A stretch of 64,000 nt of DNA from a virus: positions 1 to 64,000 of IMG/VR virus record IMGVR_UViG_3300010397_000003; one strand, given 5' to 3'. Made by a program: the position numbers and the translations under genes. This document shows positions 4,096-35,659 of the stretch, one piece after another (position 1 is the first letter of the stretch; every line of letters starts with the position of its first letter). The notes under the pieces were generated by a model. It saw only the letters and a program-made list of their open reading frames with translations, was not told the origin of the DNA and did not search any database.

Positions 4096-4150
4096 GCGAG
4101 CAATAGCGAGCGGTCGTCTGTGAATGCTGGTCGTCTCGCCAGGTCTGGGT
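4096..4150 (+). repeat. cassette arm type A (partial)
   Basis: GCGAGCAATAGCGAGCGGTCGTC...GGTCGTC, same subtype as arms at 12425 and 33377. Confidence 0.5.
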
Positions 4151-4337
4151 TCTTATTTTTATGATCCTATAAATCGAAAGAGAAAGCCGATCCACCTCCA
4201 AAGTAGATCGGCCCTTGCTAAAACTAACCACAGATTGTGTTGGGAAACGCATTAAATCTACTGAGTACCTGATCGACATGTGATACGCATATTGACTCCT
4301 TTGTTTGATTTGATTTCAGCATAACTAGTTTGTGGAC

Positions 4338-5321
4338 TTACGCCGCTACGGGTTTGGCTCTGTAATCCTCAGTCGGAGGTTTGATCGTGATCTTCGGCAT
4401 TGGCTTGTCTGTGCGCACCCATTCGGACACTCGGCCGCCGCGGGCCTGATCTGGTTTCCACTGTTGAGGCTGCTTGATGAAATAGCCGTCAGTTTGAAGA
4501 TTAAGCATTACGCGGCGAACCTCTGAAACCGGAAGGAAAGTAAACTCTGACATGAGGCTGTCCGTGTTGTAGCCCTTCTCCCAGGCGTAGAGCAACGCTT
4601 CCTCTGCGGCCTCGATAAACAATCCGTCGTGGCGTTCGAGCAGTTGCACGATTATCTCCAGAATATCATCCGCACAACGGGTATCGGGACACCTCAACCG
4701 GAGGGCATCAAGCGTAGGGTGCGCGTCAAAGTGAAGCCAGTTAGCCATCGCTTTGCGCTTCTCGCCGCCTATGGACTCAACAAAAGCCTTTCGCGCCGCG
4801 CTTCGGGTTTCCTTAATTTCCTCAACCGCTTTGCGGGCATCCGCGACCGAGAAAAAAGGGTTGTCTGCTTTCTTCTGCGCAAACACCTCCAACGCTTCTT
4901 CAGCGTCGGGCGCTCGCAGGGCTTGCTCGTAAAATCCCTTCTCCGTCAGGTCTGCGAATTTCTGATCGATCAGAAATTTCCCAAGCGTGTCGATAATTTG
5001 GGCGTTACGGTAAATCGTTGAACGGCTCTGGCCCTTTAAGTACGCTTCCTTGTCAACCGCCGCGACCACGCCCACGTCATCGCCTTTGGACTCAAGGCGC
5101 TTGAACATCTCAGAATCACAAGCGCACTCGACCACCCAAGCCCATGTTCCAACCTCTCGCGCCTTGTCGCGTATCTCTTTAATCTCTTCCGGTTCAAGTT
5201 CAGGAAGGAGCAGCAGCAACGAGTCACGGGTCTGTTCGAGACTGTTTGCGCCGTGAATGATTTCGGCCAAGGCTTCAGTTACGCGGGTCTTACGTGGTTT
5301 TGGTTTTAAGGCTGCTGACAC
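4338..5321 (-). CDS. hypothetical helical protein, possible C-terminal winged helix
   Basis: 327 aa ORF, AGGAG RBS with GTG start. Confidence 0.7.
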   Translation of the reverse strand: MSAALKPKPRKTRVTEALAEIIHGANSLEQTRDSLLLLLPELEPEEIKEIRDKAREVGTWAWVVECACDSEMFKRLESKGDDVGVVAAVDKEAYLKGQSRSTIYRNAQIIDTLGKFLIDQKFADLTEKGFYEQALRAPDAEEALEVFAQKKADNPFFSVADARKAVEEIKETRSAARKAFVESIGGEKRKAMANWLHFDAHPTLDALRLRCPDTRCADDILEIIVQLLERHDGLFIEAAEEALLYAWEKGYNTDSLMSEFTFLPVSEVRRVMLNLQTDGYFIKQPQQWKPDQARGGRVSEWVRTDKPMPKITIKPPTEDYRAKPVAA

Positions 5322-5349
5322 AGGGGTTGCTCCTATTCAAACTGTTTCT

Positions 5350-5500
5350 ATTTCCATTAATCAACTCCCATGAACTTTCGCGGCTTACTTAATTGCGAAT
5401 TTCAGGCTGCCCTTGCGGACAATTCGAGGCTCATTCCAAGCCCGACCTTGAGCGTGTTGATAGCGGCGTTAACGTCTCTATCGTGCTCGGCTCCACAATG
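5350..5500 (-). ncRNA. putative TnpB omegaRNA (scaffold ending TTCAT plus guide)
   Basis: TnpB omegaRNAs overlap the gene 3' end; TTCGC..GCGAA stem then GTTCAT right-end-like motif; 5' boundary is a guess. Confidence 0.45.
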
Positions 5501-6454
5501 AGCACACGTCCAAAGTCTTACCTTCAAGCCTGCCCATCCGCTCGGCCCGGAAAGAGCGCCGCACGTCGAACAAGTCTTGGTGGAATTTCGTGACGGCACT
5601 TCGATGTACTCACGACCGCCTGCACGGCACTTGTACGCGAGCATAGATCGAAGCTGTCCGTGGCTACTTGATGCGACGGACTTGCCGAACTTCTTTGCGA
5701 TGTTTTTATGATTGTCTGCGCTGAAGGCGATTAACTGATTCTCGGAAACCAATCGTCGCGACAACTTGTGATTGCGATCCTTGCGCTGATTCGCAATTCG
5801 CTCGTGTAGTCTCGCAACCTGTTTGCGGTTAACGCCTCGCTGGGCCTGCGCCAATCGCAACGCGGAGGCTTCTAATTCTCGTGGGTGCGACATCTTCTCG
5901 CCTGACGATAGTGCGAGCAAATCCTTAAAGCCAGGGTCGATACCTATCTCTGAATCAGAGACGTGCGGAATCGCGTTTGGTTCCGCATCTATGAATAGAC
6001 ACAGATACCAGCCGCTTGCGCGCTTAACGATTCGGCCGCATTTGACTTTACCTTCAGGGACTTCCTGTTTGTGGTGGCGGATGCGCCCCAGAGTCGGGAT
6101 GCTTATGCGGCGATCGGGCCATCGCTTTACCGGATCGATTAGCGGAATACTGTTGAGTCGATTGCGGAATCCTTTGAGTCGCGGCCTGCGAGCAATACCC
6201 TTGAAGCATCGAGACCACGCGAGGTACGCATCGGCCAAGATCCCTTGAAGCACGTGACTTGGAATCTCCACCTTCTGGGAATGGTTCGCCAGAAGATTCT
6301 GAAAGGCTTTCGGCGTATAGAACACCCGGTCACGAGCGTCGTTCTCGATCTTTTTTACGCCCCAGTTCCACACGGCGGTTAGATGGCAAAGCCAGCGGTT
6401 AAGCTGGCGCTCTTGCCGCGGAGTGAGTTTCAGTTTTAACTGAACCTGAACCAT
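5402..6454 (-). CDS. tnpB: TnpB-family RNA-guided endonuclease (solo, no TnpA)
   Basis: N-terminal HTH, RuvC-I IGIDPG, Zn finger CSTCG..CAHCG, RuvC-III DRDVNAA; RuvC-II reads LIAFSADN, lacking the usual Glu. Confidence 0.9.
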   Translation of the reverse strand: MVQVQLKLKLTPRQERQLNRWLCHLTAVWNWGVKKIENDARDRVFYTPKAFQNLLANHSQKVEIPSHVLQGILADAYLAWSRCFKGIARRPRLKGFRNRLNSIPLIDPVKRWPDRRISIPTLGRIRHHKQEVPEGKVKCGRIVKRASGWYLCLFIDAEPNAIPHVSDSEIGIDPGFKDLLALSSGEKMSHPRELEASALRLAQAQRGVNRKQVARLHERIANQRKDRNHKLSRRLVSENQLIAFSADNHKNIAKKFGKSVASSSHGQLRSMLAYKCRAGGREYIEVPSRNSTKTCSTCGALSGPSGWAGLKVRLWTCAHCGAEHDRDVNAAINTLKVGLGMSLELSARAA

Positions 6455-6515
6455 GTGAAACTATCTTATTTTACAACACTTTAGCGAGAGATTGGAGAAC
6501 TTTGTTCAACTCCCT

Positions 6516-6764
6516 TCAACACGTCTCGCAATAGGCTATGCGGCCTCTGTGCGTCAGAATCCAGCCGTGAATCGTCATCGGGAATTGTCCGCCCAATGTG
6601 AATTCGACGGCATCCACCAATCCCTTTTCTTGCATTGCGTCGAGAATCTTGGCCTTCGATTGGAAACAGCGCGGCAGACTCTTGTGATAGAACGCTTGCG
6701 CAATCTCAGAAGCGAACATCTTTTCGAGCATCTTCATTTCTGCTTTCGTGATCGTGTCTGCCAT
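6516..6764 (-). CDS. hypothetical protein (winged-helix-like)
   Basis: 82 aa, ends in WILTHRG motif. Confidence 0.6.
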   Translation of the reverse strand: MADTITKAEMKMLEKMFASEIAQAFYHKSLPRCFQSKAKILDAMQEKGLVDAVEFTLGGQFPMTIHGWILTHRGRIAYCETC

Positions 6765-6777
6765 TACCTAAACTCCC

Positions 6778-7071: not shown

Positions 7072-7401
7072 CTATTTCGTTTCGATTGCTGCTAGAGCAG
7101 CTAGACAGATTGCTTTGGGGAAGGTTTCGGCTTCAATCCATTCATTGTGCAAACCGTCTGTTAGTCCGTCTTTTAGAAATTGCGCAAACCACCGCCTTTG
7201 TCCGTTACGCTGGATTAAATAGTCCGACATGAAGTGGAGTCCTGGCGCGGCGATCTTCTCGACTACTTCCATTGCTGCGGAGATGTCCGTGGAGTAGCGT
7301 GGGAGTATTGACGCGCCCACCTTATCCGCGCCAGTCATCCAGTCCCAACCCATTACCTTCACGCCAATCTGCTTATCTAATTCTCGATCTTCCATCTCCA
7401 C
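7072..7401 (-). CDS. phage ABA-sandwich-domain-like protein
   Basis: RELDxxIxxKVMGW...PRYSTDISAAMEVVEK...AICLAAL. Confidence 0.7.
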   Translation of the reverse strand: MEMEDRELDKQIGVKVMGWDWMTGADKVGASILPRYSTDISAAMEVVEKIAAPGLHFMSDYLIQRNGQRRWFAQFLKDGLTDGLHNEWIEAETFPKAICLAALAAIETK

Positions 7402-7407
7402 CTCTTT

Positions 7408-7530
7408 GCGAGCGAGCCACGAAACTACATCGAAACGGGCGTCGCTGAATTACCGTTGCTTTCAGAAAATAAATTCATTTCTGTTAATGAGAACCAGAAC
7501 CCTTCTAACTTTGTCGTCACGGTCTCCGTT
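7408..7530. repeat. back-to-back cassette arms (A on +, B on -) sharing AATTC core
   Basis: GAGCC-N38-TGCTTTCA, core 7472..7476, then CTGTTAATGAGAACCAGAACCCTTC. Confidence 0.65.
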
Positions 7531-8742: not shown

Positions 8743-9354
8743 TTCAAAAAGAAACCCGATCAGGCGTCCCCAATCGGGCTACCGAAGCCCCTGCTAACCA
8801 CTCGCGAAAGAGGAAGGACAGGGGCAACGATGCGTTAAAAAATAAAAGTTCGTTACGGCTTACGATTTCCGCGATGTTTAGAACCACTCGCGAAGGGTCG
8901 CGCAATTCGTTGCGCAGCGTTCCTCTAACAGCATGTGAGTATCGCGGAAAATCACGAGCTATAACTGTGCCGACAGTGGCGGATGGATCAAGTGTCCCAC
9001 TAGGAATGGGCGCGGATCGGCAAATCGCTTTCCCTGTAAACAGGTTTTCTCCGGGCAACGGGACGGTAATCGATCCGTCAATGCCAGCTACGTCCCGGTC
9101 GTATGTCAGAGTCATCAACATGACAAATAAAGCGAGCTAAAGCCGATCTCCTTGAGCCTGAAATAACAGACCATACCCTTCGCCAATAGCCACATCAGCC
9201 TTCTCAGGAATACTGACGAGGGAAGCTGGCGGTCTGTCTGATCCTGCTTTTGGTCTACAAAATAATTCATCACAAGCCCTACTTCTTTGGCTGTATGGAG
9301 TGAAACAGAATGGACAAGAATCTTTGTCGTTCATTCTGTCTGGGCCTTTTGGTC

Positions 9355-9918
9355 TCATTCGCAACCACGTCCAACTTCGCCTGGGTTATTCGGCGCGGTA
9401 AATTGCTGCCACGGCACAAAGCCTTTCGGACACCAGAAACCCCATTCGCGAATACGCGGCCCCGTGATAACCAGCGTCCAGCAGGGGATCGGTTGCCGCG
9501 CTACGCCGCCCCGCTTCAACAGAACTACGCGATGCCGATGCGTTGCGCGACGAATACCCACGGACAGCCAACGCCGAAACACCCACTTGCCGCCGGTCAC
9601 GATCTCCCAATAGCAACCCTTTAGCATGAACGAGACGAACCACCACGGGTGATCGTGTAGCGCTCGATCTTCGTCGTCACGCATGAACTTGTGAATGTAA
9701 ATACTCAGCCACGGATTACGCGGAATGACGTACCAACGCAGAAGATAAGGATCGTCTTTCCGGCCGACGATGAAATGCGGGCCACCGCACAGCCATCCGC
9801 GAAGCCATTTCTCAATCGCGGCGCGGGCGCTCCAGTTAGGTTCCAGACTTGTGCGATTCAATATTTTCACGCTGCTTTCAGATGTAATGGAAGTCCGTTT
9901 TCTGTCCACGCGGAACAT
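9355..9918 (-). CDS. phage cupin-like protein (true start probably downstream)
   Basis: YLLRW, LHDHPWWF, HRV, CWTLVITGP..REWGF. Confidence 0.65.
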   Translation of the reverse strand: MFRVDRKRTSITSESSVKILNRTSLEPNWSARAAIEKWLRGWLCGGPHFIVGRKDDPYLLRWYVIPRNPWLSIYIHKFMRDDEDRALHDHPWWFVSFMLKGCYWEIVTGGKWVFRRWLSVGIRRATHRHRVVLLKRGGVARQPIPCWTLVITGPRIREWGFWCPKGFVPWQQFTAPNNPGEVGRGCE

Positions 9919-10094
9919 TAACTATCCATTTCATCCACTCGGTATAAGTGAATAGATCGGCGAGTTGTCGAAAGATTGAGATTTCCGAAAGGATGGCGAG
10001 AACTAGAAAAGTCCTACCTGCGGAGCCAATCTTGAGATTAATCGCCAATGTTTTCCTATTCACCACCTGATTCTAAGTCCAAAAAGTGTCCACG
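9891..10094. other. candidate attP region
   Basis: gap just 3' of integrase bracketed by direct repeats AAGTCCnnnnnnTGTCCACG (9891..9910, 10075..10094) resembling arm-type sites. Confidence 0.4.
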
Positions 10095-11917: not shown

Positions 11918-12501
11918 GCATTAGGATAATGAAGCACAATACCCTTCCTGCTTACGGTCTGAGTTCCTGAGTCCCACGCAGGTACGTAGCGTCATGCGGC
12001 GTGCGCGCGAAGCGTCGCTTGACTGTCCATCCAAACTTCCCCGATTTGATTACGCTCGAACCACCCCTCAAGTAGTTCAATCTGAAAACAGCCGTCCTTC
12101 GTGCGCGTGTTTCTAACATTAAACACCCGACGCCAGTCCAGCTCTCGCTTGTTGTTTTTATTCGGGTAGCAAAACACTGGCCCAATCTTCAGCGCGTCGG
12201 AAACCTGACGCGGCGATTGCAGTAAGTGACGCCCCTTCGAGGCGTGGGTTTCTTTCCCAAAACGCTACGCAGCCGGGACACTCGCCTTTGGGGATTACGA
12301 GAGCTTCAACGGGTCGCTTTTCTCTGCGGTGTCTGGCCGGATGACCGAGACACGCGACGCCGGGACCGCAAACTAAACAGGTCTGCGCTGGTTGTTCTGT
12401 TTGCATAATCTTCATTCTTTCTTTGCGAACGAAAAAGTGAGCGGTCGTCCTTGCTGCAAGGTCGTCAGGGAATGCCCTGCTGGCTTCAAAACTTCTGATT
12501 C
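11918..12501 (-). mobile_element. putative gene cassette (B arm 11918..11970, A arm 12425..12488) with two small ORFs
   Basis: outward-pointing arms enclose 11992..12177 and 12158..12415. Confidence 0.55.
12158..12415 (-). CDS. small Cys-rich hypothetical protein
   Basis: ATG 10 nt inside arm head. Confidence 0.5.
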   Translation of the reverse strand: MKIMQTEQPAQTCLVCGPGVACLGHPARHRREKRPVEALVIPKGECPGCVAFWERNPRLEGASLTAIAASGFRRAEDWASVLLPE

Positions 12502-12600
12502 ATCTGTGCGCGACCATAGGTAGTACTCCGGGGTCCGTTTCTATCTTGTTATCTGGGCTCGCTTTCCGCTCGCGCGATTCGCTCGCACTTTCCAAAATGT

Positions 12601-12834
12601 TCACTTGAGTACGTCCAGCGCTTTCTCAAGAAGGCTTGCCGCCTGCCGAGCTTCTTCTTGCGTCTTGAAGTCCTCAACATGAAGCAGGCCGCTGCCGGTT
12701 ACGTGCCAGTAAACCGACCAGCACGCTATCGCAGGGTCGCCCGCTTCGCATTGCTCCATGAGTTCTTTACCTTCATCGTCCGCCCCAACAATCGCGCAGG
12801 GGTGAAACTCTACTGCGTCAGGAAATCGCTCCAT
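12601..12834 (-). CDS. hypothetical protein
   Basis: 77 aa, WSVYWH motif. Confidence 0.6.
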   Translation of the reverse strand: MERFPDAVEFHPCAIVGADDEGKELMEQCEAGDPAIACWSVYWHVTGSGLLHVEDFKTQEEARQAASLLEKALDVLK

Positions 12835-13423
12835 CGTCGTCTCCTATCAACATGAATTGTGCCGACTCGCGCTTTCGTTCCACGGTAACAATAGTGTCAT
12901 TGTGAACGCCGCCATGACTCACGAGCAAGATTTCCTCGGTAACAAACCCGTGCTTAACTCCCATGCCAACCGTGTTCCAGCCACACGAGATGACAATTCC
13001 TTCCGGCTCGCATATTCGAGCGATAGCGGACTTCCAATCTGCCCAAGACTTGCCCTGCGTGTCCTGCATAGTCGTTACGCGCCCAACTTGCGCGTAACAC
13101 TCCGCCACCTGTCGTGCCGAGTATGGCGGATCGAATATGACCAAATCGGCGGAGACCTTGCGCGCCTCAAGCATTGCTAGGAACTCAAGTGCGTCCACGT
13201 GAGACTCTGCGGCTGTTTCAGGATTCAAGTCGTTGGTGTACGTCGCCCATCGCTTGTTTCGCGCAAACGGATCAACGCTCACTTTCGACTGGTAGAGATA
13301 CGATTTCACTAAGGCGCGGATCGGTGGAATGTCAAAGGTGTTCGGAGAAGGCATCGCCCACACGCGACGCATCGGAATCGCCCGCTCAATCGAAACCAAT
13401 TCTTCTTGAATTACTGCGCTCAT
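12818..13423 (-). CDS. putative adenine-specific DNA methyltransferase
   Basis: VDPFA motif I-like and LVIFDPPY motif IV. Confidence 0.8.
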   Translation of the reverse strand: MSAVIQEELVSIERAIPMRRVWAMPSPNTFDIPPIRALVKSYLYQSKVSVDPFARNKRWATYTNDLNPETAAESHVDALEFLAMLEARKVSADLVIFDPPYSARQVAECYAQVGRVTTMQDTQGKSWADWKSAIARICEPEGIVISCGWNTVGMGVKHGFVTEEILLVSHGGVHNDTIVTVERKRESAQFMLIGDDDGAIS

Positions 13424-13488
13424 TTACCCTCGCGCGGAACGCGCTCACGATCTCCCAAAGCACCGAGCCTCTTAAATCACCCGTGGTT

Positions 13489-14067
13489 TCAATCTCTAAA
13501 TTCAACCTTCACGACGCCGAAGCTCTTGTACTCGCGAGCGAAGGCAGCGACGTTCTTTCCAAAGTAAGTGACGACGCTTCCCTTCGACACGCCTTTCTTG
13601 ATCGTTCCATCCGGTAAGCGATAGTTGGTTCGCGGAACCAGAGAACACTGAGGAAGCCTTGCGAGCGGCTGAAACCAAGCCTCGGATGTTGCCGCGTAAG
13701 TGATATTGCAGGCTTCGACCGTGCGGCCTTCGTAATACTCGCGTACAAGTTTTGCGATCCACTTTGTATTGCCGTGGTAAGGGTAGGCGTGGTGGATATG
13801 CTCTTTAATGCACGATGCCCCACACGCTTCCTCCGCGCGACCGAATGGATGATTGAGCCAGATGCGCCCATGCCAAAGCCGGGCAAGTCCGTCATCTTGC
13901 GCGGTGAAGATCCGCGTTGCCTTGACGATTCGATTCGCGTTCTCGCTACTCGCCGGATCAAGATCGATTCCGCCCATAACACGGCGCGCGGCCTCAACGA
14001 TCTCGACGGGTGTGTAATATTCGACTTCGCCAGAGGTTTGATTAATAAGCTGATGTGCTGCTACTAC
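13489..14067 (-). CDS. phage Dam-type N6-adenine methyltransferase
   Basis: EYYTP, IDLDPAS, IWLNHPF (NPPF variant); start reassigned to ATG 14067. Confidence 0.8.
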   Translation of the reverse strand, partial: VVAAHQLINQTSGEVEYYTPVEIVEAARRVMGGIDLDPASSENANRIVKATRIFTAQDDGLARLWHGRIWLNHPFGRAEEACGASCIKEHIHHAYPYHGNTKWIAKLVREYYEGRTVEACNITYAATSEAWFQPLARLPQCSLVPRTNYRLPDGTIKKGVSKGSVVTYFGKNVAAFAREYKSFGVVKVEFRD

Positions 14068-16935: not shown

Positions 16936-16972
16936 TGTCAACTTCATTTCTTATTCTCCATAGATTTTCAAC

Positions 16973-17155
16973 TTACGTTTTCCGGTTACCATGCCCAACG
17001 TGATACGGCCTTGCTCGGCATCGAAACTCTGCGCAGATGTAGACATGTAACTTCAAGGGATTCTTTCGATCTGGAATCATTTCTTGCCGGCGCAGTAGTG
17101 ACCTGATATGCGCCTCTGCCTTTCCCCTGGATTCGTGTCCTACTTTTCTGCACAT
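16973..17155 (-). CDS. small Zn-binding protein
   Basis: CxKVxH...YxC..C...HVGH. Confidence 0.55.
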   Translation of the reverse strand: MCRKVGHESRGKAEAHIRSLLRRQEMIPDRKNPLKLHVYICAEFRCRARPYHVGHGNRKT

Positions 17156-17156
17156 C

Positions 17157-17582
17157 TCACCTGATTCCTTTTTGTGCGACCATAGGGCATTCCACGGCGT
17201 TCGTTACGTTATGGGTGCGTGGCTCGCTTTCCGCTCGCTCAGTCAGCGTTACGTAACCAAGTTTCTCTTCTTCTTTTTCGAGCCAGTCTGCAATATCGGC
17301 GCGCGACCAGCGGTGGCTATCGTTTAAGTGAATGATTACGTCAGTCATGTCCACGGCATCTTCGTCTTGGCATTGACTAACCGGACAAGTTGAAGGCTCT
17401 TTGAGGTAGGGGTATTCTAATTCAGGAACCGCAGCGCTAACGCCTTCCAGACCGCCTGTCATTGCTTCATAGCCCGCGCCTATCGCGCACGTGCTTCCAT
17501 CGCGGTACATCTGGCGAAAGGACTGCGGCCGGAGCTTCGCCCCTTCTCGAATAGCCTCACTGAACGATGCGAATAGTTTCAT
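17157..17582 (-). CDS. hypothetical protein (LND...IADWLE motif)
   Basis: 141 aa; last ~25 aa are translated arm sequence. Confidence 0.7.
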   Translation of the reverse strand: MKLFASFSEAIREGAKLRPQSFRQMYRDGSTCAIGAGYEAMTGGLEGVSAAVPELEYPYLKEPSTCPVSQCQDEDAVDMTDVIIHLNDSHRWSRADIADWLEKEEEKLGYVTLTERAESEPRTHNVTNAVECPMVAQKGIR

Positions 17583-17665
17583 TGCGCTTTACCTCTGGCC
17601 GGTTTACCGGCCCACGAATCGTTGACGTAACGAACGTCTTTAGTTGCCCTATGGCTTCACACTTC
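17163..17665 (-). mobile_element. putative single-gene cassette (A arms 17175..17240 and 17597..17659)
   Basis: both arms fit consensus with 38-nt internal spacing; ORF starts just inside one arm and reads through the other. Confidence 0.75.
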
Positions 17666-20231: not shown

Positions 20232-20543
20232 TTAGAACGCCGTCGCAGCTTTGGGATTTGTGATATGCCCGATCCCGCTTTCCGGCTTGACTTCATCTGC
20301 GAATAGCGGCCTGAACCATGCTTGCGGGCACTCCGCGTCGATGTACTCAAGGCCGTGGCGTTTGACCGTCAACCAGAGAACGCCAAGCATTTGCGGCGGG
20401 TAGCCGTTCGCGTTATCGCTCCACTGCTGCGCCATTGATTCGTTCTCCGGCGCGGCCTTGACTCGCTCGACAACCGCATCAACTTGAGCCGGAAACATGC
20501 CGCAGTTCGTTAGCCGTTCGCGCATTACCTGTTCAAAGGTCAT
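20232..20543 (-). CDS. hypothetical protein
   Basis: 103 aa; starts just inside arm 20557..20616. Confidence 0.65.
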   Translation of the reverse strand: MTFEQVMRERLTNCGMFPAQVDAVVERVKAAPENESMAQQWSDNANGYPPQMLGVLWLTVKRHGLEYIDAECPQAWFRPLFADEVKPESGIGHITNPKAATAF

Positions 20544-20556: not shown

Positions 20557-20616
20557 GCGGTTTACCGCTTCGATTCGTTGACGTGTCGGACGCCTTGAGA
20601 ACTACCTTGGGCCTCA
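20557..20616 (+). repeat. cassette arm type A
   Basis: closely similar to 17597..17659; back-to-back with arm at 20636. Confidence 0.7.
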
Positions 20617-20622
20617 ATCCCT

Positions 20623-21535
20623 GAATCCTATTTGTCAAAGCCTCGGGCATTCATGGACGCCCGTTTCTATCTGGGTGCGTGGCTCACTTTTTCGCTCGCT
20701 CAAGCCGCTTTCTTTTGCCTTGGAGCGAGGTCTAACCACTTACTTCCCGGCGTTTTGAATTTGATGCAGGCTTGGACGCAGATTTCAGCGGCGATATTCA
20801 GGATTTCATCGCGGGCTTTAGCTCGCGCATAAGCAGCAGCAGCATCAGCAGCATAAGCAGCAGCATCAGCAGCATAAGCAGCAGCATCAGCAGCATCAGC
20901 AGCAGCAGCATCAGCAGCATAAGCAGCAGCATCAGCAGCATAAGCAGCAGCAGCAGCATAAGCAGCATAAGCAGCACGGCACGCCTTACGGGCGTTTTCG
21001 GCGGCCTCTCGCGTGCCCTCGTTCTCGCAGCGGAGCGCGGCTTCGACAATGGCTCCAGCGTGAATTTTATCTTTGAATCTCAGCGCGGTAGCGCGAAGCG
21101 TGACGGGAAGAATCTGGCGAATCACTTGCTCCGCGAGGTGCATCACGAACTCTTTACGGAGTTGGCGATTCTCAGGCAGGTCAAGGAACTCGCTTCCAAG
21201 TTGAGCGATCGCCGCGCGTCTCATCCCTGCGGTTCGGGCCGCATTACTTGACCACGCTGCATCGTTGATTCGGATTTTGTATCGCCGGATGCAATTCGCT
21301 ACGCACTCCGGCTGATCGCCGTGCGGTAATTCGAGCGCATAGCAGATGGCCGCTTCAACGCACATCTTTCCCGGCTTCGCGACGCCTAAGCCGGACACAA
21401 GACCAGCATCCACGACCCCTAAAACCTTCCGCGCATGGTTTTTGGTTAGCTTCACCGTCTTTCTCCTTCGCCGCAAGGCGGCCCCACACTCTTTACTAAA
21501 ACGGGCGTCTTGATTCACCCTTTGGCTTCAGCCCT
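20623..21535 (-). mobile_element. putative single-gene cassette (A arms 20636..20699 and 21470..21530)
   Basis: TGA stop abuts one arm head; RBS and GTG start follow the other. Confidence 0.75.
20700..21455 (-). CDS. hypothetical protein with A(A/Y/D)A low-complexity repeat
   Basis: GTG 21455 after AAGGAG; tandem GCT/TAT/GAT repeats 20828..20975. Confidence 0.75.
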   Translation of the reverse strand: MKLTKNHARKVLGVVDAGLVSGLGVAKPGKMCVEAAICYALELPHGDQPECVANCIRRYKIRINDAAWSSNAARTAGMRRAAIAQLGSEFLDLPENRQLRKEFVMHLAEQVIRQILPVTLRATALRFKDKIHAGAIVEAALRCENEGTREAAENARKACRAAYAAYAAAAAYAADAAAYAADAAAADAADAAAYAADAAAYAADAAAAYARAKARDEILNIAAEICVQACIKFKTPGSKWLDLAPRQKKAA

Positions 21536-21929: not shown

Positions 21930-22112
21930 CTACGCAGCTGACACTTGCTTAATCGCGCCCTGAACATCTGGCGATTCATCGATCAGCTTCTTGATAACTT
22001 TTGAAACGGATCGGTCGTCAGCTTTGGCTACGAGCTTGAGGGCTTCCGCCGTGACGGGCGTAACCATCGCTCCCACGAGCACTAAATCTGTTTTTTTCTT
22101 TTTCTTAGCCAT
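21930..22112 (-). CDS. ribbon-helix-helix regulator (Cro-position)
   Basis: LVGAMV strand, AEALKLVA, DDRSVSKVIKKLI. Confidence 0.75.
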   Translation of the reverse strand: MAKKKKKTDLVLVGAMVTPVTAEALKLVAKADDRSVSKVIKKLIDESPDVQGAIKQVSAA

Positions 22113-22118
22113 CGGCCT

Positions 22119-22150
22119 AAGAATAACCTTAAAGGTTTTTGAAAGTCAAT
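22119..22150 (-). promoter_or_regulatory. leftward sigma70 promoter with palindromic operator
   Basis: TTGACT-N18-TATTCT; AACCTTaAAGGTT at 22125..22137 in the spacer. Confidence 0.6.
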
Positions 22151-22194
22151 AGAAATTATTTAGGAAGATAAATCTAGCAGAGGAGTCTTAAGAG

Positions 22195-22422
22195 ATGGTA
22201 AAAAAGCGCGTGCCTAAGGAGAACCGCGATGCCAAAATGATCGGGTTTCTCGCTACGCCTACCCTTCGTGCGGAATTAGAGCGGATAGCCGAGTATGAAG
22301 AACGCTCCCTCAGCTATGTTTGCTTTGCATTGGTTCAAAAAGGACTGGACACATACCAGCAGGATCATGATCTGCGCAGCCCTCGCAACCTTCCCGCGCG
22401 TAAAAGTAAGAACAGTCCATAA
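22195..22422 (+). CDS. ribbon-helix-helix regulator (repressor position)
   Basis: MIGFLA strand, RAELERIA, EERSLSYV; divergent from 21930..22112. Confidence 0.75.
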   Translation: MVKKRVPKENRDAKMIGFLATPTLRAELERIAEYEERSLSYVCFALVQKGLDTYQQDHDLRSPRNLPARKSKNSP

Positions 22423-22683
22423 TTGTCCCCGTTTGACCGCCCCGGCATCCATCTAATTTTGGGAGGTTCCGCCAAAATGGAACGCATTGATCTTATTGAC
22501 CGCCTTCTCCCCGCACCCTCGCACACCCTTGTCGTGGAAACCCCAAAAGGGGAACTGATCCTGGTATCCACAGAGCGAAAACCTAAGCGCGGAGATACGG
22601 TCTTCGTGGATGAGGCTTTTAAGAAGTATCGCAGAGGAGCGGCCATCACTGGCGTTGCCTACTGCGTGATCTCCTTCCTCTAA
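22423..22683 (+). CDS. degenerate LexA/S24-like C-terminal domain protein
   Basis: GELILV..KPKRGDTVFV..ITGVAYCVI resembles S24 fold; no GxSM Ser motif. Confidence 0.4.
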   Translation: MSPFDRPGIHLILGGSAKMERIDLIDRLLPAPSHTLVVETPKGELILVSTERKPKRGDTVFVDEAFKKYRRGAAITGVAYCVISFL

Positions 22684-22727
22684 AAACCGCCTAGTTTTAG
22701 CCCCATTAAATTTAAGTGCGAAAAGTC

Positions 22728-22757
22728 TTGACTTTTGTCTTAAAGGTTCTTTAGAAT
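22728..22757 (+). promoter_or_regulatory. rightward sigma70 promoter with operator-like site
   Basis: TTGACT-N18-TAGAAT containing CTTAAAGGTT. Confidence 0.65.
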
Positions 22758-22769
22758 GCTTCAAAGCCC

Positions 22770-23907: not shown

Positions 23908-24758
23908 AAAGATTCTGAGTGTGAGACCACAGGGAGTCTTGTGGGGTTCGTTTTAATGAAGATTAGAAGCACGTAAACGTGCGAGGGGGAAGCGATGATC
24001 GAAATCAAAAACAGGTACACGGGCGCAGTCATTGTCCGCGATGGTGAGGCTGAGACGCTACGAGATGCGGTGATTCGATTCGTCGCAAACGAGCGAGCAG
24101 CGGAGCGCTCTGCCGACTTGAGCTCTGCCGACTTGCGCTCTGCCGACTTGCGCTCTGCCAACTTGCGCTCTGCCAACTTGCGCTCTGCCAACTTGCGCTC
24201 TGCCAACTTGAGCTCTGCCAACTTGCGCTATGCCGACTTGCGCTCTGCCAACTTGCGCTCTGCCAACTTGCGCTATGCCGACTTGCGCTCTGCCAACTTG
24301 CGCTCTGCCAACTTGAGCTCTGCCGACTTGAGCTCTGCCGACTTGAGCTCTGCCGACTTGCGCTCTGCCAACTTGCCATCCCCAACCGCCGTTCTGCTGG
24401 CGACGTGGGGTGATTTATCGCCGCAACTTGTCGCTGATCTAATGGTGTTCGACGCGGCTAACCATCCCAACCCTGAAGCGTTCGACGCTTGGGCCAAAGG
24501 CGGTTCGTGTCCCTATAGCGGCGTTCGCGTTCAGAGGGCCGCAAATTTCACAGAAGACGCAAGGGAGTGGGGCAAAGGCGTATCGTGTCGCCCCTATGAT
24601 TTGATGGTGCGGGTACTGGCTGAGAAGTGTCCCGAATGGTCAGAAGAGAGGATCGCGGAATTCACCAAGAGGTTTGAAGCGAGCGATAGCTCGCCACGCA
24701 ACTAAGCCAAACACGGACGCCTTGAGTCGCCCTATGGCTGCACATAAAGAAAAAGATT
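23908..24758 (+). mobile_element. putative single-gene cassette (A arms 23922..23982 and 24679..24742)
   Basis: inverted arms; AAAGATT duplicated at 23908..23914 and 24752..24758. Confidence 0.78.
23995..24705 (+). CDS. pentapeptide-repeat protein
   Basis: A(D/N)L(R/S)(S/Y) repeats encoded by 15-bp tandem repeat ~24105..24376. Confidence 0.9.
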   Translation: MIEIKNRYTGAVIVRDGEAETLRDAVIRFVANERAAERSADLSSADLRSADLRSANLRSANLRSANLRSANLSSANLRYADLRSANLRSANLRYADLRSANLRSANLSSADLSSADLSSADLRSANLPSPTAVLLATWGDLSPQLVADLMVFDAANHPNPEAFDAWAKGGSCPYSGVRVQRAANFTEDAREWGKGVSCRPYDLMVRVLAEKCPEWSEERIAEFTKRFEASDSSPRN

Positions 24759-25601: not shown

Positions 25602-25820
25602 GTGATAGCCGAGATAGCAGTCAGCGAAGTGAATCTAGATGTTGACTGGATTCCCTGTGAGAAGTGTCACCGCACTGGATGGCTTGACTATGAGGTTGAC
25701 TACTTTGGTCGTAAGACAGAACCAGGAAGATGTAATGCGCTAGGGTGCGAGGCGGGAATGGTGGCTCAAAGCCAAGGGCATTCAGCGACGACCGTTAATC
25801 ACAGAATGTTGGGCGCGTGA
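25602..25820 (+). CDS. Zn-finger protein whose C-terminus runs into a cassette arm
   Basis: CEKCHRTG..CNALGCEAG then arm sequence. Confidence 0.6.
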   Translation: MIAEIAVSEVNLDVDWIPCEKCHRTGWLDYEVDYFGRKTEPGRCNALGCEAGMVAQSQGHSATTVNHRMLGA

Positions 25821-26241
25821 ACGCGCTAGGCAAAGAAAAGGGAAAGCATGAGCCGATACGTGTCTCCTAACAATCTCAAGCCGTCACCATTGTCTTGTGC
25901 GGCGACTTAGAAGCGATTTGGGATTGGCGTTATCAGAAAGCGACGAGAACTATGCGCTCTATGGTTGCGCAGCGGGTCGTAATCAGAAATCGGCGGGAGC
26001 GTGGGCTTGGGAGTTGTATGTGCGACAGCGCGGCGAGTGGCGACCAATGGGGATCGGTTCGTGCGACCCTGCGAGTTCGATGCGCAAGCAAAGCACTCTA
26101 ACGAGTTTTACCAATCACGGGGATTGCGAGGTTTGTATCGAACAACCGCGAACAGGGAAGAAGGCAACACGAACCTAGACCGCGTAAGCGGCAACAACCG
26201 TGACCTGTGGGGTTGAGTTTTGTTGCAGCATTAACAGAAAG
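25756..26241 (+). mobile_element. putative gene cassette (A arm 25767..25826, B arm 26164..26236)
   Basis: outward arms; GAAtG/GAAaG at junctions; removal restores an open frame. Confidence 0.7.
25897..26178 (+). CDS. hypothetical protein (start uncertain)
   Basis: ends ATRT* inside B arm, as does 33470..34084. Confidence 0.5.
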   Translation: MRRLRSDLGLALSESDENYALYGCAAGRNQKSAGAWAWELYVRQRGEWRPMGIGSCDPASSMRKQSTLTSFTNHGDCEVCIEQPRTGKKATRT

Positions 26242-26302
26242 ATTTTCGTGTTTGTAGACAGAAAGATTTTGTTTGAGGGTTGAAGTAAGAGAGGCGGCTT
26301 AG

Positions 26303-27219: not shown

Positions 27220-27805
27220 GGTAGATGAAGCCCAACGGAGGATCGCGGCGTTCGTTAATTCAATGATCGTGAGCCGCCTTGCGGCAAAAGGAAAAGCAAA
27301 ATGAGCGAGAAATGTGAAATCGGCGCGCACTACGTTGTTGGATTCATGTTCAGCGCAGACCTTCGGTTTGTTCTATTAGTGCTAAAGAATCGTCCTGACT
27401 GGCAGCGCGGAAAGCTTAACGGCGTTGGCGGTAAGGTTGAAGAAAACGAGTCACCGGATCAAGCGATGAGCCGTGAGTTCTTAGAAGAGGCCGCGATTGA
27501 CACCGAGGACTGGCTGCGCTTCGCAACGCTTGGTGATGATCGTGGATGGATCATTCATTTCTATTACGCGAAGGGCGACATCAACAAGGCAAAAACCGTG
27601 ACCGACGAATCACTGATGATGTTTCCGCTCTGGAAGGTGTCGAGTGATACGACGCTAATTCCCAACCTTACGTGGCTGATTCCAATGGCTCTAAGTATGC
27701 AGAAAGAGCGCTGCGATTACTTTCAAATTACCGAGCAGCAAATATTTGAGCCACGAACGCAGGATTAACTGACGCCGCCGAATGCCCTTTGGTTGCAGAA
27801 AAAGA
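27220..27805 (+). mobile_element. putative single-gene cassette (A arms 27226..27285 and 27732..27797)
   Basis: both arms show 37-nt spacing; enclose only the Nudix gene. Confidence 0.75.
27301..27768 (+). CDS. Nudix hydrolase
   Basis: Nudix box GGKVEENESPDQAMSREFLEEA. Confidence 0.9.
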   Translation: MSEKCEIGAHYVVGFMFSADLRFVLLVLKNRPDWQRGKLNGVGGKVEENESPDQAMSREFLEEAAIDTEDWLRFATLGDDRGWIIHFYYAKGDINKAKTVTDESLMMFPLWKVSSDTTLIPNLTWLIPMALSMQKERCDYFQITEQQIFEPRTQD

Positions 27806-27807: not shown

Positions 27808-28158
27808 ATGCCGAAACGAATTCAACGGAGCCGCAAGAAGGGATCGCGATTGCCCTACGGGACAGTTTGCCTAACGCGGCCCGGCCCCTATGGAAATCCT
27901 TTCAGAGTTGGGATGTGGTTTCGCAAGATCACCTCGGACTGGAAAGTGTGGACAAGGGGTAACAGTCCTGCGTTTGGCAATCAGCAAGTTCGCGATTTAG
28001 AGCATTCGCTGGAATTGTTTGACGAGTACGCAGAATGTCGTATCAAGTGGCAGCCTGATTGGCTCAACCCGATTCTCGACAAAGACTTCTGGGCGTGCTG
28101 GTGCCCGCTCACTTCCAAGTGCCACGTTGACACTTACCTCAGACTGGCGAACCAATGA
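27808..28158 (+). CDS. DUF4326-like protein
   Basis: PKRIQRSRKKG..RPGPYGNPF..ACWCP...CH. Confidence 0.75.
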   Translation: MPKRIQRSRKKGSRLPYGTVCLTRPGPYGNPFRVGMWFRKITSDWKVWTRGNSPAFGNQQVRDLEHSLELFDEYAECRIKWQPDWLNPILDKDFWACWCPLTSKCHVDTYLRLANQ

Positions 28159-29144: not shown

Positions 29145-29206
29145 GCGAACGGAAGTGAGCCGGACAAGTGAGATCGACTGACGCCCGTGAATGCCCTTGG
29201 GTTTCA
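29145..29206 (+). repeat. cassette arm type A (partner not found)
   Basis: GTGAGCC-N37-GGGTTTCA with GACGCC and GAATGCCC. Confidence 0.7.
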
Positions 29207-29353
29207 AAACAGAAAATGATTTGCGCAGATTTGAATGTTGAAGCCACGGAAGACTTAGGGGATGAAATGAAAAACTTAGACTTTGCGATTTTCTTTGTTG
29301 GTTCGATTTGGGCGATCGCTTGGGCTATTGTCCGCGTCGTTCAGACTCGAAGC

Positions 29354-29878
29354 AAGATGTAGGGGATCGAAACCAAAGGGAGTCTAACGACGCCCGTATC
29401 TTGAAAGTTTGTGGGCCGCTCTGCGGCGAGGGGAGAAGATGGCGCTAGATTGCAAAACTGTTTATTACGACGGCGGCAGCATGGTCGTTGGCTGTGGTTC
29501 GCAGCCTTGCAAATGCGGACATCTAGCCGCGTTGTTTGAAGAGGATCATGAGGCGATCTTCGCCGAACTGGAAGCGGAACTAGCGAAGCCGTTACCCGCT
29601 GATTACGTGCCAAGTGGCCAAGAGTGGTGGGACTGAATGGCGACCAAAACACCCAAACATCTCAAGCTATCGAAAACAATGCTGGCGCAGATTGCCGCCT
29701 ATGCTCAGGACTGCGAAGAGGCCGGATGGTACTACGGAAATAGGGCCGAGTTCTGGAAACGCCACAAGGCGATTAAGGCGTGGCTCAAGCAGGAAATCTC
29801 CGCGCGAGCGAAAAGCTCGCCACGAATCCACGCTAAAACGGACGCCGTGATCGGCCCTATGGCTTCGATCAAAGAATG
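29354..29878 (+). mobile_element. putative two-gene cassette (A arms 29368..29427 and 29804..29867)
   Basis: both arms start GATCGAA(A/G)CCA from outside; AAGA(A)TG at both junctions. Confidence 0.75.
29439..29636 (+). CDS. small hypothetical protein
   Basis: GGGGAG RBS at arm head. Confidence 0.55.
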   Translation: MALDCKTVYYDGGSMVVGCGSQPCKCGHLAALFEEDHEAIFAELEAELAKPLPADYVPSGQEWWD

Positions 29879-29879
29879 A
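29637..29879 (+). CDS. hypothetical protein, paralog of 3776..4069
   Basis: see paralog; C-terminus is translated arm. Confidence 0.75.
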   Translation: MATKTPKHLKLSKTMLAQIAAYAQDCEEAGWYYGNRAEFWKRHKAIKAWLKQEISARAKSSPRIHAKTDAVIGPMASIKE

Positions 29880-33034: not shown

Positions 33035-33409
33035 ATGAGCGAGGACTTTGACAAACTAAAAGCGCGTAAAGACATGCTAGTTCAACGCGAACGAGAAACC
33101 GTCCGCTCCGTCTCTCCTGATGCTGACACGTTAGCCTATTGTGGCTGTGGTGATGGGTTTACGACTACAAATCCAGGTACGTGTGTTAACTGTCTCGCAT
33201 CGCTTACCGCTCCTGATGCTGGAGAGGTAGCGCGGAGAGCGGCAGAGAAGATTTGGGAGAAGTTTCGAGTTTACGATCCCGGTGCAGCAATTAACGAGAT
33301 GCAGATCGACATCTTTGCGGGCATCATTCAATCCGAACTCGCCAACGTCGGTACTCCCGATGCAGATGAGCCGCAGGATTCAGGAACCGCAACCAAAGGT
33401 CATTCGTAG
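33035..33409 (+). CDS. hypothetical protein ending in cassette arm
   Basis: coupled ORF. Confidence 0.5.
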   Translation: MSEDFDKLKARKDMLVQRERETVRSVSPDADTLAYCGCGDGFTTTNPGTCVNCLASLTAPDAGEVARRAAEKIWEKFRVYDPGAAINEMQIDIFAGIIQSELANVGTPDADEPQDSGTATKGHS

Positions 33410-34152
33410 ACGACCGTTCAATTACCACGACCGCTCACTAGCGTTCGCAAAGAAAAGAGGGGAGTAGCAATGGAAAGCGCAATCAGGCAGGCCGGGTTGG
33501 TGGAGTTTCCGCCGTTCATGGGTGAAAGAATTTACATGCGAGAGTTTACGAAGCGCGACGGATTGCCGTCCGATCTCTTGCGCTGGCAGTTTACGATTGA
33601 TGCGATGCTTGCCGAGATCGAAACGGATGGGCCAATCTATCTGATGGTTGATCAGGGATTCGTTAACGCTGGGAATGTACATCGAAGAGGAGGCCCGCAT
33701 GTGGACGGTGCTTGGCATCCCGGCATCTCCGCGCACGGTAATCCTCGCCCGCATCACAACCCCATGCCTGAACCTCGACCCTACCCAAGACACAGCCTAA
33801 AACTCGGCGGACACGGGCATCGCTTTGACGGCTCGTCGGAGTTGATAGTTTTCGCGTCTGACGTGCTGGGGTGTCAAGCTTACGTCGGAAGCTACGACGG
33901 CACGCCAGCAGAAGACGGAGATTGTTCGCGCCTCGACCTTAGCCGCATGACCGTTATCAACATGGAGCCGGGGCGTGTGTGGACGGGAGACGCCTTCACG
34001 ACGATCCACGAATCCGTCCCAGTACAGCACGATTGCCTGCGGACAATGGTGCGCCTAAATGCGCCGAACGCAACACGAACCTAGACCGTGCAAGCGTCGC
34101 TAACTCAGACCGTGGAATTGAGTTTTGCGACCACGTATTAACAGACCAATTC
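33377..34152 (+). mobile_element. putative single-gene cassette (A arm 33388..33448, B arm 34070..34146)
   Basis: ATTC at both outer junctions; encloses one gene. Confidence 0.72.
33470..34084 (+). CDS. putative 2OG-Fe(II)/cupin-fold oxygenase-like protein
   Basis: HRRGGPHVDG and IHES..R..VRL (HxD...H...R pattern). Confidence 0.55.
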   Translation: MESAIRQAGLVEFPPFMGERIYMREFTKRDGLPSDLLRWQFTIDAMLAEIETDGPIYLMVDQGFVNAGNVHRRGGPHVDGAWHPGISAHGNPRPHHNPMPEPRPYPRHSLKLGGHGHRFDGSSELIVFASDVLGCQAYVGSYDGTPAEDGDCSRLDLSRMTVINMEPGRVWTGDAFTTIHESVPVQHDCLRTMVRLNAPNATRT

Positions 34153-34181
34153 CCCGTTAATGCAGATGATAAGGAGAAACG

Positions 34182-34769
34182 ATGAAAATAGAAATGACCT
34201 TTGACGGCGTTCGTGTTGACGGAACTTTGGACGGCAAAACCTTTGCTGTTGTGCGACGCGGCGCAGAAACAAGCCTCGAAGGAATCACGGGTGATGACAC
34301 GTTCGGCGGGATGGTCGGTTCTGCGATTCTTGACTTCGCCGGACATGTGCTTGACGGAGCCGTGATTATCATGGAAGCAACTGACGATTTGAAAGTCTGG
34401 GACAAATTGGACGACGATCTTGCGAACGAAGTTTACGACGCGATGATCTGAGGAGCAACCATGACTATGACTAAACCTAATGCAGATGATGAAGCGCGGG
34501 AGATTGTTGGTGCTTTTACTTTGGAGTTAGGCCCAACACGCCGACCGCCAAAAGCAACCGAGGAAATGTTAATGCAAGTTATTGCCGCCGCTCTCACTCG
34601 CTCCCGTCAGCGAGTAGTTGAAGTCGTAAAGGCGAAGCGGGATGAATGGCAACGGCAAGCCGATATCTATGAAGCAGCCGAACATGATTCAGTGTTCGCG
34701 TTTATTAAGTTTGTCGCCGCAGCAAATGAAATTCTCGCTGAGCTAGAGAGGGGGATGGGTAATGGCTGA
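34182..34769 (+). other. two small hypothetical genes (34182..34451, 34461..34769)
   Basis: AGGAG RBSs. Confidence 0.55.
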
Positions 34770-35376
34770 AGAAGACGGAGAGTGGGGCGATATGTATGCC
34801 GACGATGGGCCACGGGATAATCAACCACAAGAACTGCTACCGTGTCCGTTTTGCGGAGAGCGGCCAGTATTGGACGACGCTGGTGACGTGCTGTGCAAAA
34901 AGACTAAATGTCTGGTTCATCCTTTTGTAATTCAAAGCGTGCGAGACGGGAAGCCGCTCAACGATCCAGTGATGGCTTGGAACGCCCGCGCTGCCTGTCC
35001 TGATGAAGTAGAAGCGCCCGACGATGAGATAGTTAAGATTCGTCATGCTTATGGCGGAACAAAGCCAGCATGGTTCAGCGAGCCTCACGCATTTGCTCAG
35101 GTCGCAACCGACATGGATCGTGTCACGTCTACGGTTGCGGCGTTGCGAGAGAGGATCGTCGCACTACAAGAAGAACGCGAGAAAGAAATGTTGGAGGACG
35201 ACGCCTCTAATCAGCCCACCGCCGCCGAAGTTGCAGCGTTACGTGCTGAGAATGAGCGGCAAGATTCGGATCATCTGATGACGGTTGAGCAATATGAAGA
35301 TGAAATTACGTCGCTACGTGCTGAGAACGAAGAACTGAAACAGCGGGGCTGCGGTGAGGGAATGAGGAATGGTTAA
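34762..35376 (+). CDS. Lar-like Zn finger plus coiled coil
   Basis: ELLPCPFCG..AWNARA; LRAENE repeats. Confidence 0.6.
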   Translation: MAEEDGEWGDMYADDGPRDNQPQELLPCPFCGERPVLDDAGDVLCKKTKCLVHPFVIQSVRDGKPLNDPVMAWNARAACPDEVEAPDDEIVKIRHAYGGTKPAWFSEPHAFAQVATDMDRVTSTVAALRERIVALQEEREKEMLEDDASNQPTAAEVAALRAENERQDSDHLMTVEQYEDEITSLRAENEELKQRGCGEGMRNG

Positions 35377-35581
35377 GCTAACAGACCTGTCATTGGTTCA
35401 AATCAAGCCCTTCGTTGACACGGACGGTAATCCGCGCCGTGTTTTAGAATTGGTTTTTGAGTGCGGGCAGAGAGTTAAAGTCTCACCCGAATCGTTAATT
35501 GCCTTCGCGGAACGCGCGATTCGGCAAGCCGAAGCTGCTAAAGATAACGAGCCGTCCCGTGAACACGCCGCCGAGCGATAG
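35369..35581 (+). CDS. hypothetical protein
   Basis: TAG stop lies in arm head. Confidence 0.55.
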   Translation: MVKLTDLSLVQIKPFVDTDGNPRRVLELVFECGQRVKVSPESLIAFAERAIRQAEAAKDNEPSREHAAER

Positions 35582-35659
35582 CGAGTGGTCGCCTTGAGGC
35601 TTACCGAGTTACTGTGAATGCCCTGGGCTTTGAAACCGATAATTCTTTTTCTGAAACCG
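35572..35659 (+). repeat. cassette arm type A plus AATTC core
   Basis: GAGTG-N37-GGGCTTTG with GAATGCCC; inverted TGAAACCG 19 nt later. Confidence 0.6.

Follow-up and report, generated by a model that had tools for sequence, protein, structure and literature searches.

A repeat element in two orientations at the borders of accessory genes in an uncultivated soil phage

We analyzed positions 1 to 64,000 (the window) of virus record IMGVR_UViG_3300010397_000003, a complete genome of 77,298 bp with direct terminal repeats that represents a temperate, uncultivated phage from a soil metagenome (G000 in the comparisons below). Its early region contains about 20 copies of an element of 65 to 85 bp, termed an arm, which are located at the edges of accessory genes and fall into two positional classes of opposite orientation, one in front of genes (A arms) and the other at gene ends (S arms). 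We tentatively read the arms, with a probability of roughly 0.45, as regulatory boundary modules resembling either the promoter-early stem-loop (PeSL) motifs of T4-like phages or the signals around morons, bound by a host factor or by a phage-encoded winged-helix protein of 82 amino acids (aa), and doubling as recombination linkers.

All copies share a core of about 45 bp, in which CCACG is followed, after about 12 nt, by AACGGnCGyC, 3 nt, GAATGCCCT, 1 nt, and TGGyTkCA. At the end of the core is a near-palindromic tail, followed after another 7 to 12 nt by a GAWTC motif. The 12 A arms are antisense to local transcription and immediately 5′ of a gene. Read 5′ to 3′ on the mRNA strand, an A arm consists of (G)GATTCAGGGAT, the tail TGAAGCCA, the core, CGTGG, and a GC hairpin (CGCTCGC instead in a subset), followed by a Shine–Dalgarno sequence (SD) and a start codon; in 12 of 12 cases, the inner end is separated from the start codon by 7 to 21 nt containing the SD. 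The hairpin stems vary in sequence among copies with their pairing kept, that is, they covary. The 8 S arms lie on the sense strand, all of them at the 3′ end of a co-directional gene, and are built in the order TTTGCGAGCG-GAAA-GCGAGCC, core, tail TGGTTGCA, and CAAAAAGAAA, beyond which comes either the ATG of the next gene or an A copy arranged tail-to-tail, and palindromic S–A doublets of 130 to 160 bp exist. Five open reading frames (ORFs) run into S copies (17157..17582, 23995..24705, 27301..27768, 29637..29879, and 35369..35581). Arms of either class cluster with their own class, and the flanks are class-specific (outer ATCCCTGAATCC versus CAAAAAGAAA). An earlier sequence-only reading of this DNA had stated that arm orientation does not follow transcription, which is contradicted by the invariable position of A copies before an SD and ATG and of S copies at 3′ gene ends. 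The arms, together with two elements of a second repeat family (type B), are as follows:

4096..4160, plus strand: degenerate or partial A arm, 5′ of paralog X1 (ATG near 4070, minus strand); nhmmer E 2.5; by eye, the inner GCGAGC..GCGAGCGG part, then SD and ATG
7411..7467, plus strand: A arm, 5′ of 7072..7401 (minus); E 7e-11; SD and ATG after the inner end
12425..12491, plus strand: A arm, 5′ of 12158..12415 (minus); E 1e-6; tail-to-tail with S arm 12506-12573
12506..12573, minus strand: S arm just past the stop codon of 12601..12834 (minus), forming the 3′ border of a two-gene cargo with a DNA methyltransferase (MTase); E 6e-8
13430..13494, plus strand: A arm, hairpin type, 5′ of MTase gene 12818..13423 (minus); E 7e-6
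17172..17238, minus strand: S arm, read through by ORF 17157..17582 (minus); E 3e-14
17600..17662, plus strand: A arm, hairpin type, 5′ of 17157..17582 (minus); E 2e-12
20558..20619, plus strand: A arm, hairpin type, 5′ of 20232..20543 (minus); E 1.4e-5; tail-to-tail with S arm 20632-20699
20632..20699, minus strand: S arm abutting the stop codon of the gene at 20700 (minus); E 3e-12
21470..21532, plus strand: A arm, hairpin type, 5′ of a repeat-rich gene, 20700..~21455 (minus); E 8e-10
23919..23983, minus strand: A arm, hairpin type, 5′ of pentapeptide-repeat gene 23995..24705 (plus; PF00805); E 9e-9
24679..24744, plus strand: S arm in which the pentapeptide ORF ends, at 24705; E 1e-10
25764..25829, minus strand: A arm, hairpin type, 5′ of a gene starting at about 25848 (plus); E 3e-9; entered by an ORF starting at 25602, for whose protein no homolog is on record
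26160..26245, plus strand: type-B 3′ element, partner of A arm 25764-25829
27226..27285, minus strand: A arm, hairpin type, 5′ of Nudix gene 27301..27768 (plus; PF00293); E 8e-8
27738..27800, plus strand: S arm in which the Nudix ORF ends; next ATG 12 nt past the tail; E 2e-9
29146..29209, plus strand: S arm with no nearby A partner; E 5e-8
29365..29429, minus strand: A arm, hairpin type, 5′ of 29441..29639 (plus); E 1.3e-10
29804..29870, plus strand: S arm encoding the last 25 residues of paralog X2 (29637..29879); E 1.3e-11
33388..33447, minus strand: A arm, 5′ of 33470..34084 (plus); E 4e-6
34066..34150, plus strand: type-B 3′ element, partner of A arm 33388-33447
35572..35636, plus strand: S arm closing the rightward early operon; ORF 35369..35581 ends inside the arm; E 9e-6

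The family of about 20 arms described in the sequence-only reading is real, and all 20 of its listed type-A positions bear related sequence. A sequence-only covariance model produced 19 matches in the window (cmsearch, E 3e-14 to 1.4e-5), and an nhmmer profile recovered the same set, with 18 strong copies between 7.4 and 35.6 kb and weaker ones at 13431 and 4096. Furthermore, a profile built solely from the 7 copies of a second phage, G001, retrieved 13 of the listed sites in G000 at E<0.01, whereas the same profile gave 0 matches in 20 shuffled genomes, which bears out significance against shuffled sequence. The virion module contains no convincing copy, in line with the initial observation; its sole match is partial and lies inside a gene at 73036-73082, beyond the window (E 7e-5). 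Pairwise likeness of the copies amounts to 50% to 75%, with the conserved positions fixed, and this combination of divergence and fixed positions would fit selection on a motif, not recent copying.

Six brackets, in which outward-facing A and S arms enclose one or more genes, have both arms confirmed by profile (12506-13494, 17172-17662, 20632-21532, 23919-24744, 27226-27800, and 29365-29870). The sequence-only reading had counted nine such pairs; of the remaining three, two (25764-26245 and 33388-34150) end in type-B elements, of which 26160..26245 is 78% identical to 34066-34111, and the 11918 end of the last one was not confirmed. Its description of the contents holds, in that the brackets enclose accessory genes (MTase, Nudix, pentapeptide), with the integrase, replication initiator, and exonuclease lying outside. 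The paralogs X1 (4070..3776, minus) and X2 (29637..29879, plus), which share about 75% DNA identity over 120 nt, differ at their arms: the C-terminus of X2 has been replaced by an S arm, whereas X1, which is preceded by an A arm, retains its own C-terminus.

Two other uncultivated phages bear the element, G001 and G006, with contig L100 counted as a variant of G001. G001, a complete and otherwise unrelated phage of 62,106 bp with only about ten genes in common with G000 and 7 to 8 arms, was found by a pattern scan of viral contigs, where it was the sole other carrier. Its arms obey the same A/S positional rule and surround genes other than those bracketed in G000. G006, a fragment related to G001, contains at least one arm. 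When metagenomes were scanned for the core pattern, the only new carrier among the matches listed was L100 (94% identity to G001), and among the 116 metagenome stretches listed with the pattern, real arms were confined to G001-type contigs, which makes a high-copy repeat of the host genome unlikely. No arm was detected in 8 complete or near-complete phages sharing Dam or the MTase with G000, and searches for relatives through the exonuclease and through a 716-aa virion or terminase-like protein yielded almost no kin and no arms. A scan of genome contigs for Dam returned only distant matches.

As the sequence-only reading had anticipated, the borders of gene presence, absence, and replacement in relatives fall at or near arms, in the case of a locus upstream of Dam and of the MTase cargo; within G000, the replaced C-terminus of X2 is a further module border at an arm. 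The locus upstream of Dam exists in three states. In G006 it is empty: about 50 nt, with an ordinary SD but no arm, separate the upstream gene from Dam. L100 holds a first cargo, an HD-domain gene without an A arm of its own, followed by an S arm and, beyond a linker, an A arm. In G001, the second cargo comprises an A arm, other genes, and an S arm, and is followed by the linker and the A arm also seen in L100. The left breakpoint between G001 and L100 is in the outer GAATT motif, which also contains the upstream stop codon, and those on the right-hand side map within the core or tail of the S arm and within the ORF that follows the A arm, 10 nt from its start. The MTase cargo of G000, a two-gene unit of the MTase and a 77-aa protein, is shared at 76% DNA identity with the arm-less phage G007. 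Homology begins at 13434, the border between A hairpin and SD; at the DNA level it ends at 12668, some 70 nt short of the stop codon, and at the protein level the 77-aa gene is matched up to its final residue. Because the homology spans SD to last residue, the arms of G000 lie just outside a cargo (SD to stop) that exists arm-less elsewhere. Thus, breakpoints do not coincide at a single fixed position but occur in the GAATT motif, within an S arm, shortly inside an ORF, and at the hairpin/SD border. Homologous or microhomologous exchange would account for such scatter better than would a crossover at one fixed point. As a separate observation, compared with its counterparts in G000 and G001, the Dam homolog of G006 (L166) is interrupted by about 930 bp (9204-10133), which may represent an intron or an inserted endonuclease gene.

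What is conserved in the arms is not a fold. RNAalifold yielded no consensus pairs for all arms together or for S arms alone, the S–A doublets folded no better than shuffled sequences (z −0.04 and −1.4), and no Rfam family matched at the arms. A conserved RNA or single-stranded DNA fold of the core was rejected on these grounds, and conservation is therefore that of the primary sequence. Intrinsic terminators (a hairpin with a T run) were not found at arms beyond chance, and C-richness of the kind seen at Rho utilization (rut) sites is absent. GANTC/GAWTC was also considered as a special methylation site and discarded, the motif being common genome-wide.

Fixed-position conservation of the primary sequence, the near-palindromic tail with an additional GAWTC that resembles a half-site, the geometry of A arm and SD, and the structure-selected hairpin point to a protein-bound DNA element tied to gene expression. 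Under the boundary-module reading that we favor, the arms would be protein-bound, double-stranded DNA elements by which the limits of accessory, moron-like genes are marked and controlled. The core would be bound by a dimeric factor, which may come from the host or be the 82-aa winged-helix protein common to the arm-bearing phages. The A form may combine an activator-dependent or alternative-sigma promoter or operator with a hairpin that abuts the SD and stabilizes the 5′ untranslated region, whereas the S form, an inverted core at the 3′ border, would insulate or block in the manner of a roadblock. The arms may also serve as homology patches for the gain, loss, and replacement of modules, as do PeSL motifs in T4-like phages, since they would be the sole sequences conserved among otherwise unrelated co-infecting phages; the exonuclease and NinG encoded by G000 count toward such recombination by homology. 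As for the binding factor, we regard the following gene as a lead only:

6516..6764, minus strand: candidate factor for arm binding; 82 aa; predicted winged-helix fold

The gene belongs to the operon headed by A arm 7411..7467, and the Atlas model of its product resembles winged helix-turn-helix proteins of the ArsR/PadR/MarR type (TM 0.62-0.68). The protein is 79% identical in G001 and 40% identical in the arm-less G007, and is absent from 7 other arm-less relatives.

Several observations weigh against the boundary-module reading. No known promoter consensus fits the arms: a sigma-70 scan gave no site in any arm, a sigma-54 promoter was rejected by eye because the GG/GC elements are not present, and a TGAAgC-N17-CGyC pattern in the arms resembles promoters of the extracytoplasmic function (ECF) type, a resemblance only. 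Among the G000 proteins, none has a sigma region 2, and the match to region 4 is weak. The weakest part of the reading is that a promoter role leaves the inverted S arms without an obvious function. G006 has a separate sigma-70-like promoter downstream of its single arm, and the promoter may therefore not be the core itself. Moreover, the cargo homology with the arm-less G007 starts exactly at the inner arm border, and homology within the arms alone does not explain how a cargo first came to be placed between them. Finally, the link between the winged-helix protein and the arms rests on two genomes. The first gene of the rightward operon, 22770-23270 (plus), encodes a 166-aa protein that has a weak sigma-70 region-4-like helix-turn-helix in its N-terminal part and a Cys/His (HNH-like) motif in its C-terminal part.

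In layout, the arms resemble PeSL motifs and also the borders of morons. PeSL motifs of T4-like phages follow an upstream stop codon and consist of a promoter and a stem-loop that lead into an SD and ATG (Arbiol et al. 2010, PMC2839356); they contain a consensus sigma-70 early promoter and have a direct orientation permitting mini-circles (PMC2839356; Comeau et al. 2014, PMC4122927). The arms likewise are repeated intergenic stem-loop modules in the accessory ("hyperplastic") part of a genome, hairpin-type A arms present the same succession of stem-loop, SD, and start codon, and indel or replacement borders lie at the motifs, both in the G001/L100/G006 locus and in the cargo of G000 versus G007. 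Unlike PeSLs, they have no sigma-70 match, possess a conserved core of about 45 bp, and include an inverted second class at 3′ gene ends, the S arms, which do not fit the PeSL scheme; the phage is a temperate one from soil and not T4-like. The A arms are all oriented alike relative to transcription, with the S arms inverted. The contigs of two DNA runs contained the same phage, with no joints at arms (contigs only), and no RNA run was listed as containing it.

Morons of lambdoid phages are genes with their own promoter and terminator, located between genes that are adjacent in relatives. In the same way, the arms bracket 1 or 2 accessory genes, and the G001 unit of A arm, genes, S arm, and A arm sits between genes that are adjacent in G006, where it is absent. 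However, the promoter and terminator of a moron are unrelated, whereas here both borders are one element in opposite orientation, with a putative regulatory function. The stoperators of cluster A mycobacteriophages (the gp71 sites of L5) are 13 bp long, have one orientation relative to transcription, and occur genome-wide. Like them, the arms represent a single motif that recurs tens of times in the short gaps between transcribed genes and that is presumably bound by a protein; they differ in length (65 to 85 bp), in having two orientations (12 A, 8 S) and position-specific flanks, and in being confined to the early/accessory region. Stoperators are bound by the phage repressor; for the ribbon-helix-helix (RHH) regulators of G000, no counterpart was found in G001 at E<1e-5.

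Alternatively, the arms or S–A doublets could be selfish small repeats, comparable to miniature inverted-repeat transposable elements (MITEs), REP doublets forming hairpins (REPINs), or bacterial interspersed mosaic elements (BIMEs), that spread to intergenic spots and produced the brackets as a by-product. The patchy distribution, with about 20 copies in G000, 7 to 8 in G001, at least 1 in G006, and 0 in 8 relatives, would suit such a spread, as would the palindromic doublets of 130 to 160 bp, the truncation or extension of ORFs by S arms (X2; 17157..17582), and the arm-less state of the MTase cargo in G007; the alternation of inverted subtypes with linker motifs may also recall BIMEs. However, there are no target duplications above background, the outer flanks of brackets sharing words of 4 to 7 nt versus a mean of 5.2 nt for non-partner arms, and no sharp termini, conservation past the tail fading into the GAWTC motif. 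The copies are old and divergent, and nonetheless conserve the motif positions, and every A arm is fixed relative to the SD and ATG, with a covarying hairpin. Neither is there a matching transposase: an IS1595-like enzyme was rejected because the inverted repeats next to it are unrelated to the arms and only an N-terminal piece is common to G001, and the TnpB of G000 is not shared with G001. Together with the restriction of real arms to G001-type contigs among the metagenome stretches listed, these results render a selfish origin unlikely in our view.

Mobile insertion cassettes (a term used in PMC6199540 and PMC6542083) and MITEs have inverted repeats derived from insertion sequences (IS) around passenger genes, for example in MIC231. 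The arms are similar as inverted repeats around non-transposase genes, with ORFs ending inside the right-hand repeat, and dissimilar in lacking target duplications, sharp ends, and a cognate transposase, and in being too divergent for recent transposition.

The sequence-only reading had proposed a site-specific, functionally integron-like gene-cassette system with attL/attR-like ends. A and S would then be the recombinase-binding arms of an att-like site with the crossover at GAWTC, the S–GAWTC–A doublets would mark either where two neighboring cassettes meet or where the ends of an excised circle were joined, and single arms would be the attL/attR-like ends of cassettes inserted into the backbone. 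Some of the architecture is compatible with this idea: six inverted brackets are confirmed, GAWTC sits at the center of the doublets with 7 nt to either tail, a distance that single arms keep, and the left G001/L100 breakpoint lies inside a GAWTC-type motif (GAATT). In addition, one locus occurs empty, with a first cargo, and with a second, the arms lie just outside a cargo that is arm-less in G007, and the cargo is accessory or anti-defense-like (MTase, Nudix, pentapeptide). The breakpoints, however, vary, and the others fall within an S core or its tail, inside an ORF by 10 nt, and at a hairpin/SD border. The repeats flanking partner arms are at background, partner arms do not covary, showing no extra likeness compared with random A × S pairs (p ~0.2), the arms are very divergent, and the L100 cargo has no A arm. 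Nor does the enzyme inventory favor the idea: G000 and G001 encode one tyrosine integrase each, the two being only 30% identical despite their shared arms, and no serine recombinase or Y1 transposase was found in either phage.

We therefore do not retain attL/attR-like recombination, and the likeness to integrons also fails. An integron cassette has one 3′ attC, an imperfect palindrome recognized as a folded strand, and a uniform orientation, with IntI encoded beside the array; it lacks a promoter and is expressed from a shared one, Pc. The sequence-only reading had called the phage cassettes apparently promoterless; the A copies have the arrangement of a putative promoter or operator with a 5′ untranslated hairpin. 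Both systems form arrays of small accessory-gene units with conserved border elements, but each unit here has two inverted arms without an attC-like or otherwise conserved fold, and no IntI-type gene is at the array, the single integrase, of the PF00589/phrog_1 type, having ordinary genes on both sides. The earlier statement that the arms differ from attC sites and from IS ends stands. Overall, a site-specific cassette system is quite unlikely, and equally improbable is its broader form, a gene-capture or shuffling system in which arm-less cargo enclosed by inverted arms would be moved through crossover at GAWTC by a host enzyme or an unrecognised phage enzyme.

A role at the RNA level, in the processing, stability, or antitermination of polycistronic early transcripts through RNase III stems built from paired A and S copies or boxB-like hairpins, is very unlikely: the A arms do have covarying GC hairpins directly 5′ of the SD, and hairpins of the form GCGAGC-GAAA(A)-GCTCGC, whose loops are GNRA-like, occur in some S arms, but most S arms carry a direct repeat, GCGAGCG..GCGAGCC, that is unable to pair, partner arms are no more complementary than random pairs, and the folding, Rfam, and composition results above all stand against it.

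Between about 1 and 22.1 kb, the genes of the window are encoded on the minus strand; between 22.2 and 36 kb, they are encoded on the plus strand. The early region has only two good sigma-70-like promoters, 22149 (minus) and 22728 (plus), both in the switch region. Other features referred to above are located as follows:

5402-6454, minus strand: TnpB with Cas12f-like TNB and OrfB_IS605 domains and no TnpA
10095-11186: tyrosine integrase (PF00589, phrog_1, phage-integrase type), with ordinary genes on either side
15231-16088: O-like replication initiator
19036-19713: exonuclease
21930..22764: switch region, two divergent RHH-type regulator genes, where the minus and plus gene blocks diverge
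28155-28718: NinG
36264-37346: IS1595-like DDE gene

G000 encodes three DNA MTases, and its TnpB has a 63%-identical copy in the arm-less G007. A 26-nt inverted repeat (36250-36275 and 39057-39082, 88% complementary) encloses a block of 2.8 kb with the IS1595-like DDE gene, a tRNA, and small ORFs; both repeats hold a TATATAAT-like stretch and may be IS ends or an outward promoter pair. The tRNA (37367-37453, minus, 87 nt) was identified as tRNA-Pro with anticodon AGG by ARAGORN, and scored 52.6 bits with the Rfam tRNA model. In-frame tandem repeats occur at 20806-21003, as GCAGCA-type units of 9/12 nt within gene 20700..21455, and at 24045-24434, as 15-nt units within the pentapeptide-repeat gene. 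A non-coding stretch, 16805-16972 (minus), separates an HNH endonuclease gene from a conserved 60-aa Zn-type gene (16973..17155). It shares 79% identity with G001 55344-55693, and part of it occurs in G007. Folded as RNA, it would give a long hairpin with a U run behind it (−57.5 kcal/mol, z −3.2); it may act as a strong terminator or represent a small structured RNA. Neither the G000 DNA nor a large virion-region protein matched known phages. One Dam homolog is annotated in a metagenome-assembled genome of the Pyrinomonadaceae, a weak hint at an acidobacterial host.

To our knowledge, one element serving in two orientations as both the 5′ and the 3′ border of gene units has not been described, and we know of almost no phage genetics in the Acidobacteriota. 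If the arms are control and boundary modules, they would provide a sequence-defined handle on how soil phages add, insulate, and exchange anti-defense and accessory genes, and under the regulatory reading the PeSL idea would gain an inverted version that does not depend on sigma-70. Should a recombinase act on the arms, they would represent a new kind of cassette system. Under either reading, the three-state locus and the arm-less copy of the MTase cargo are ready test substrates.

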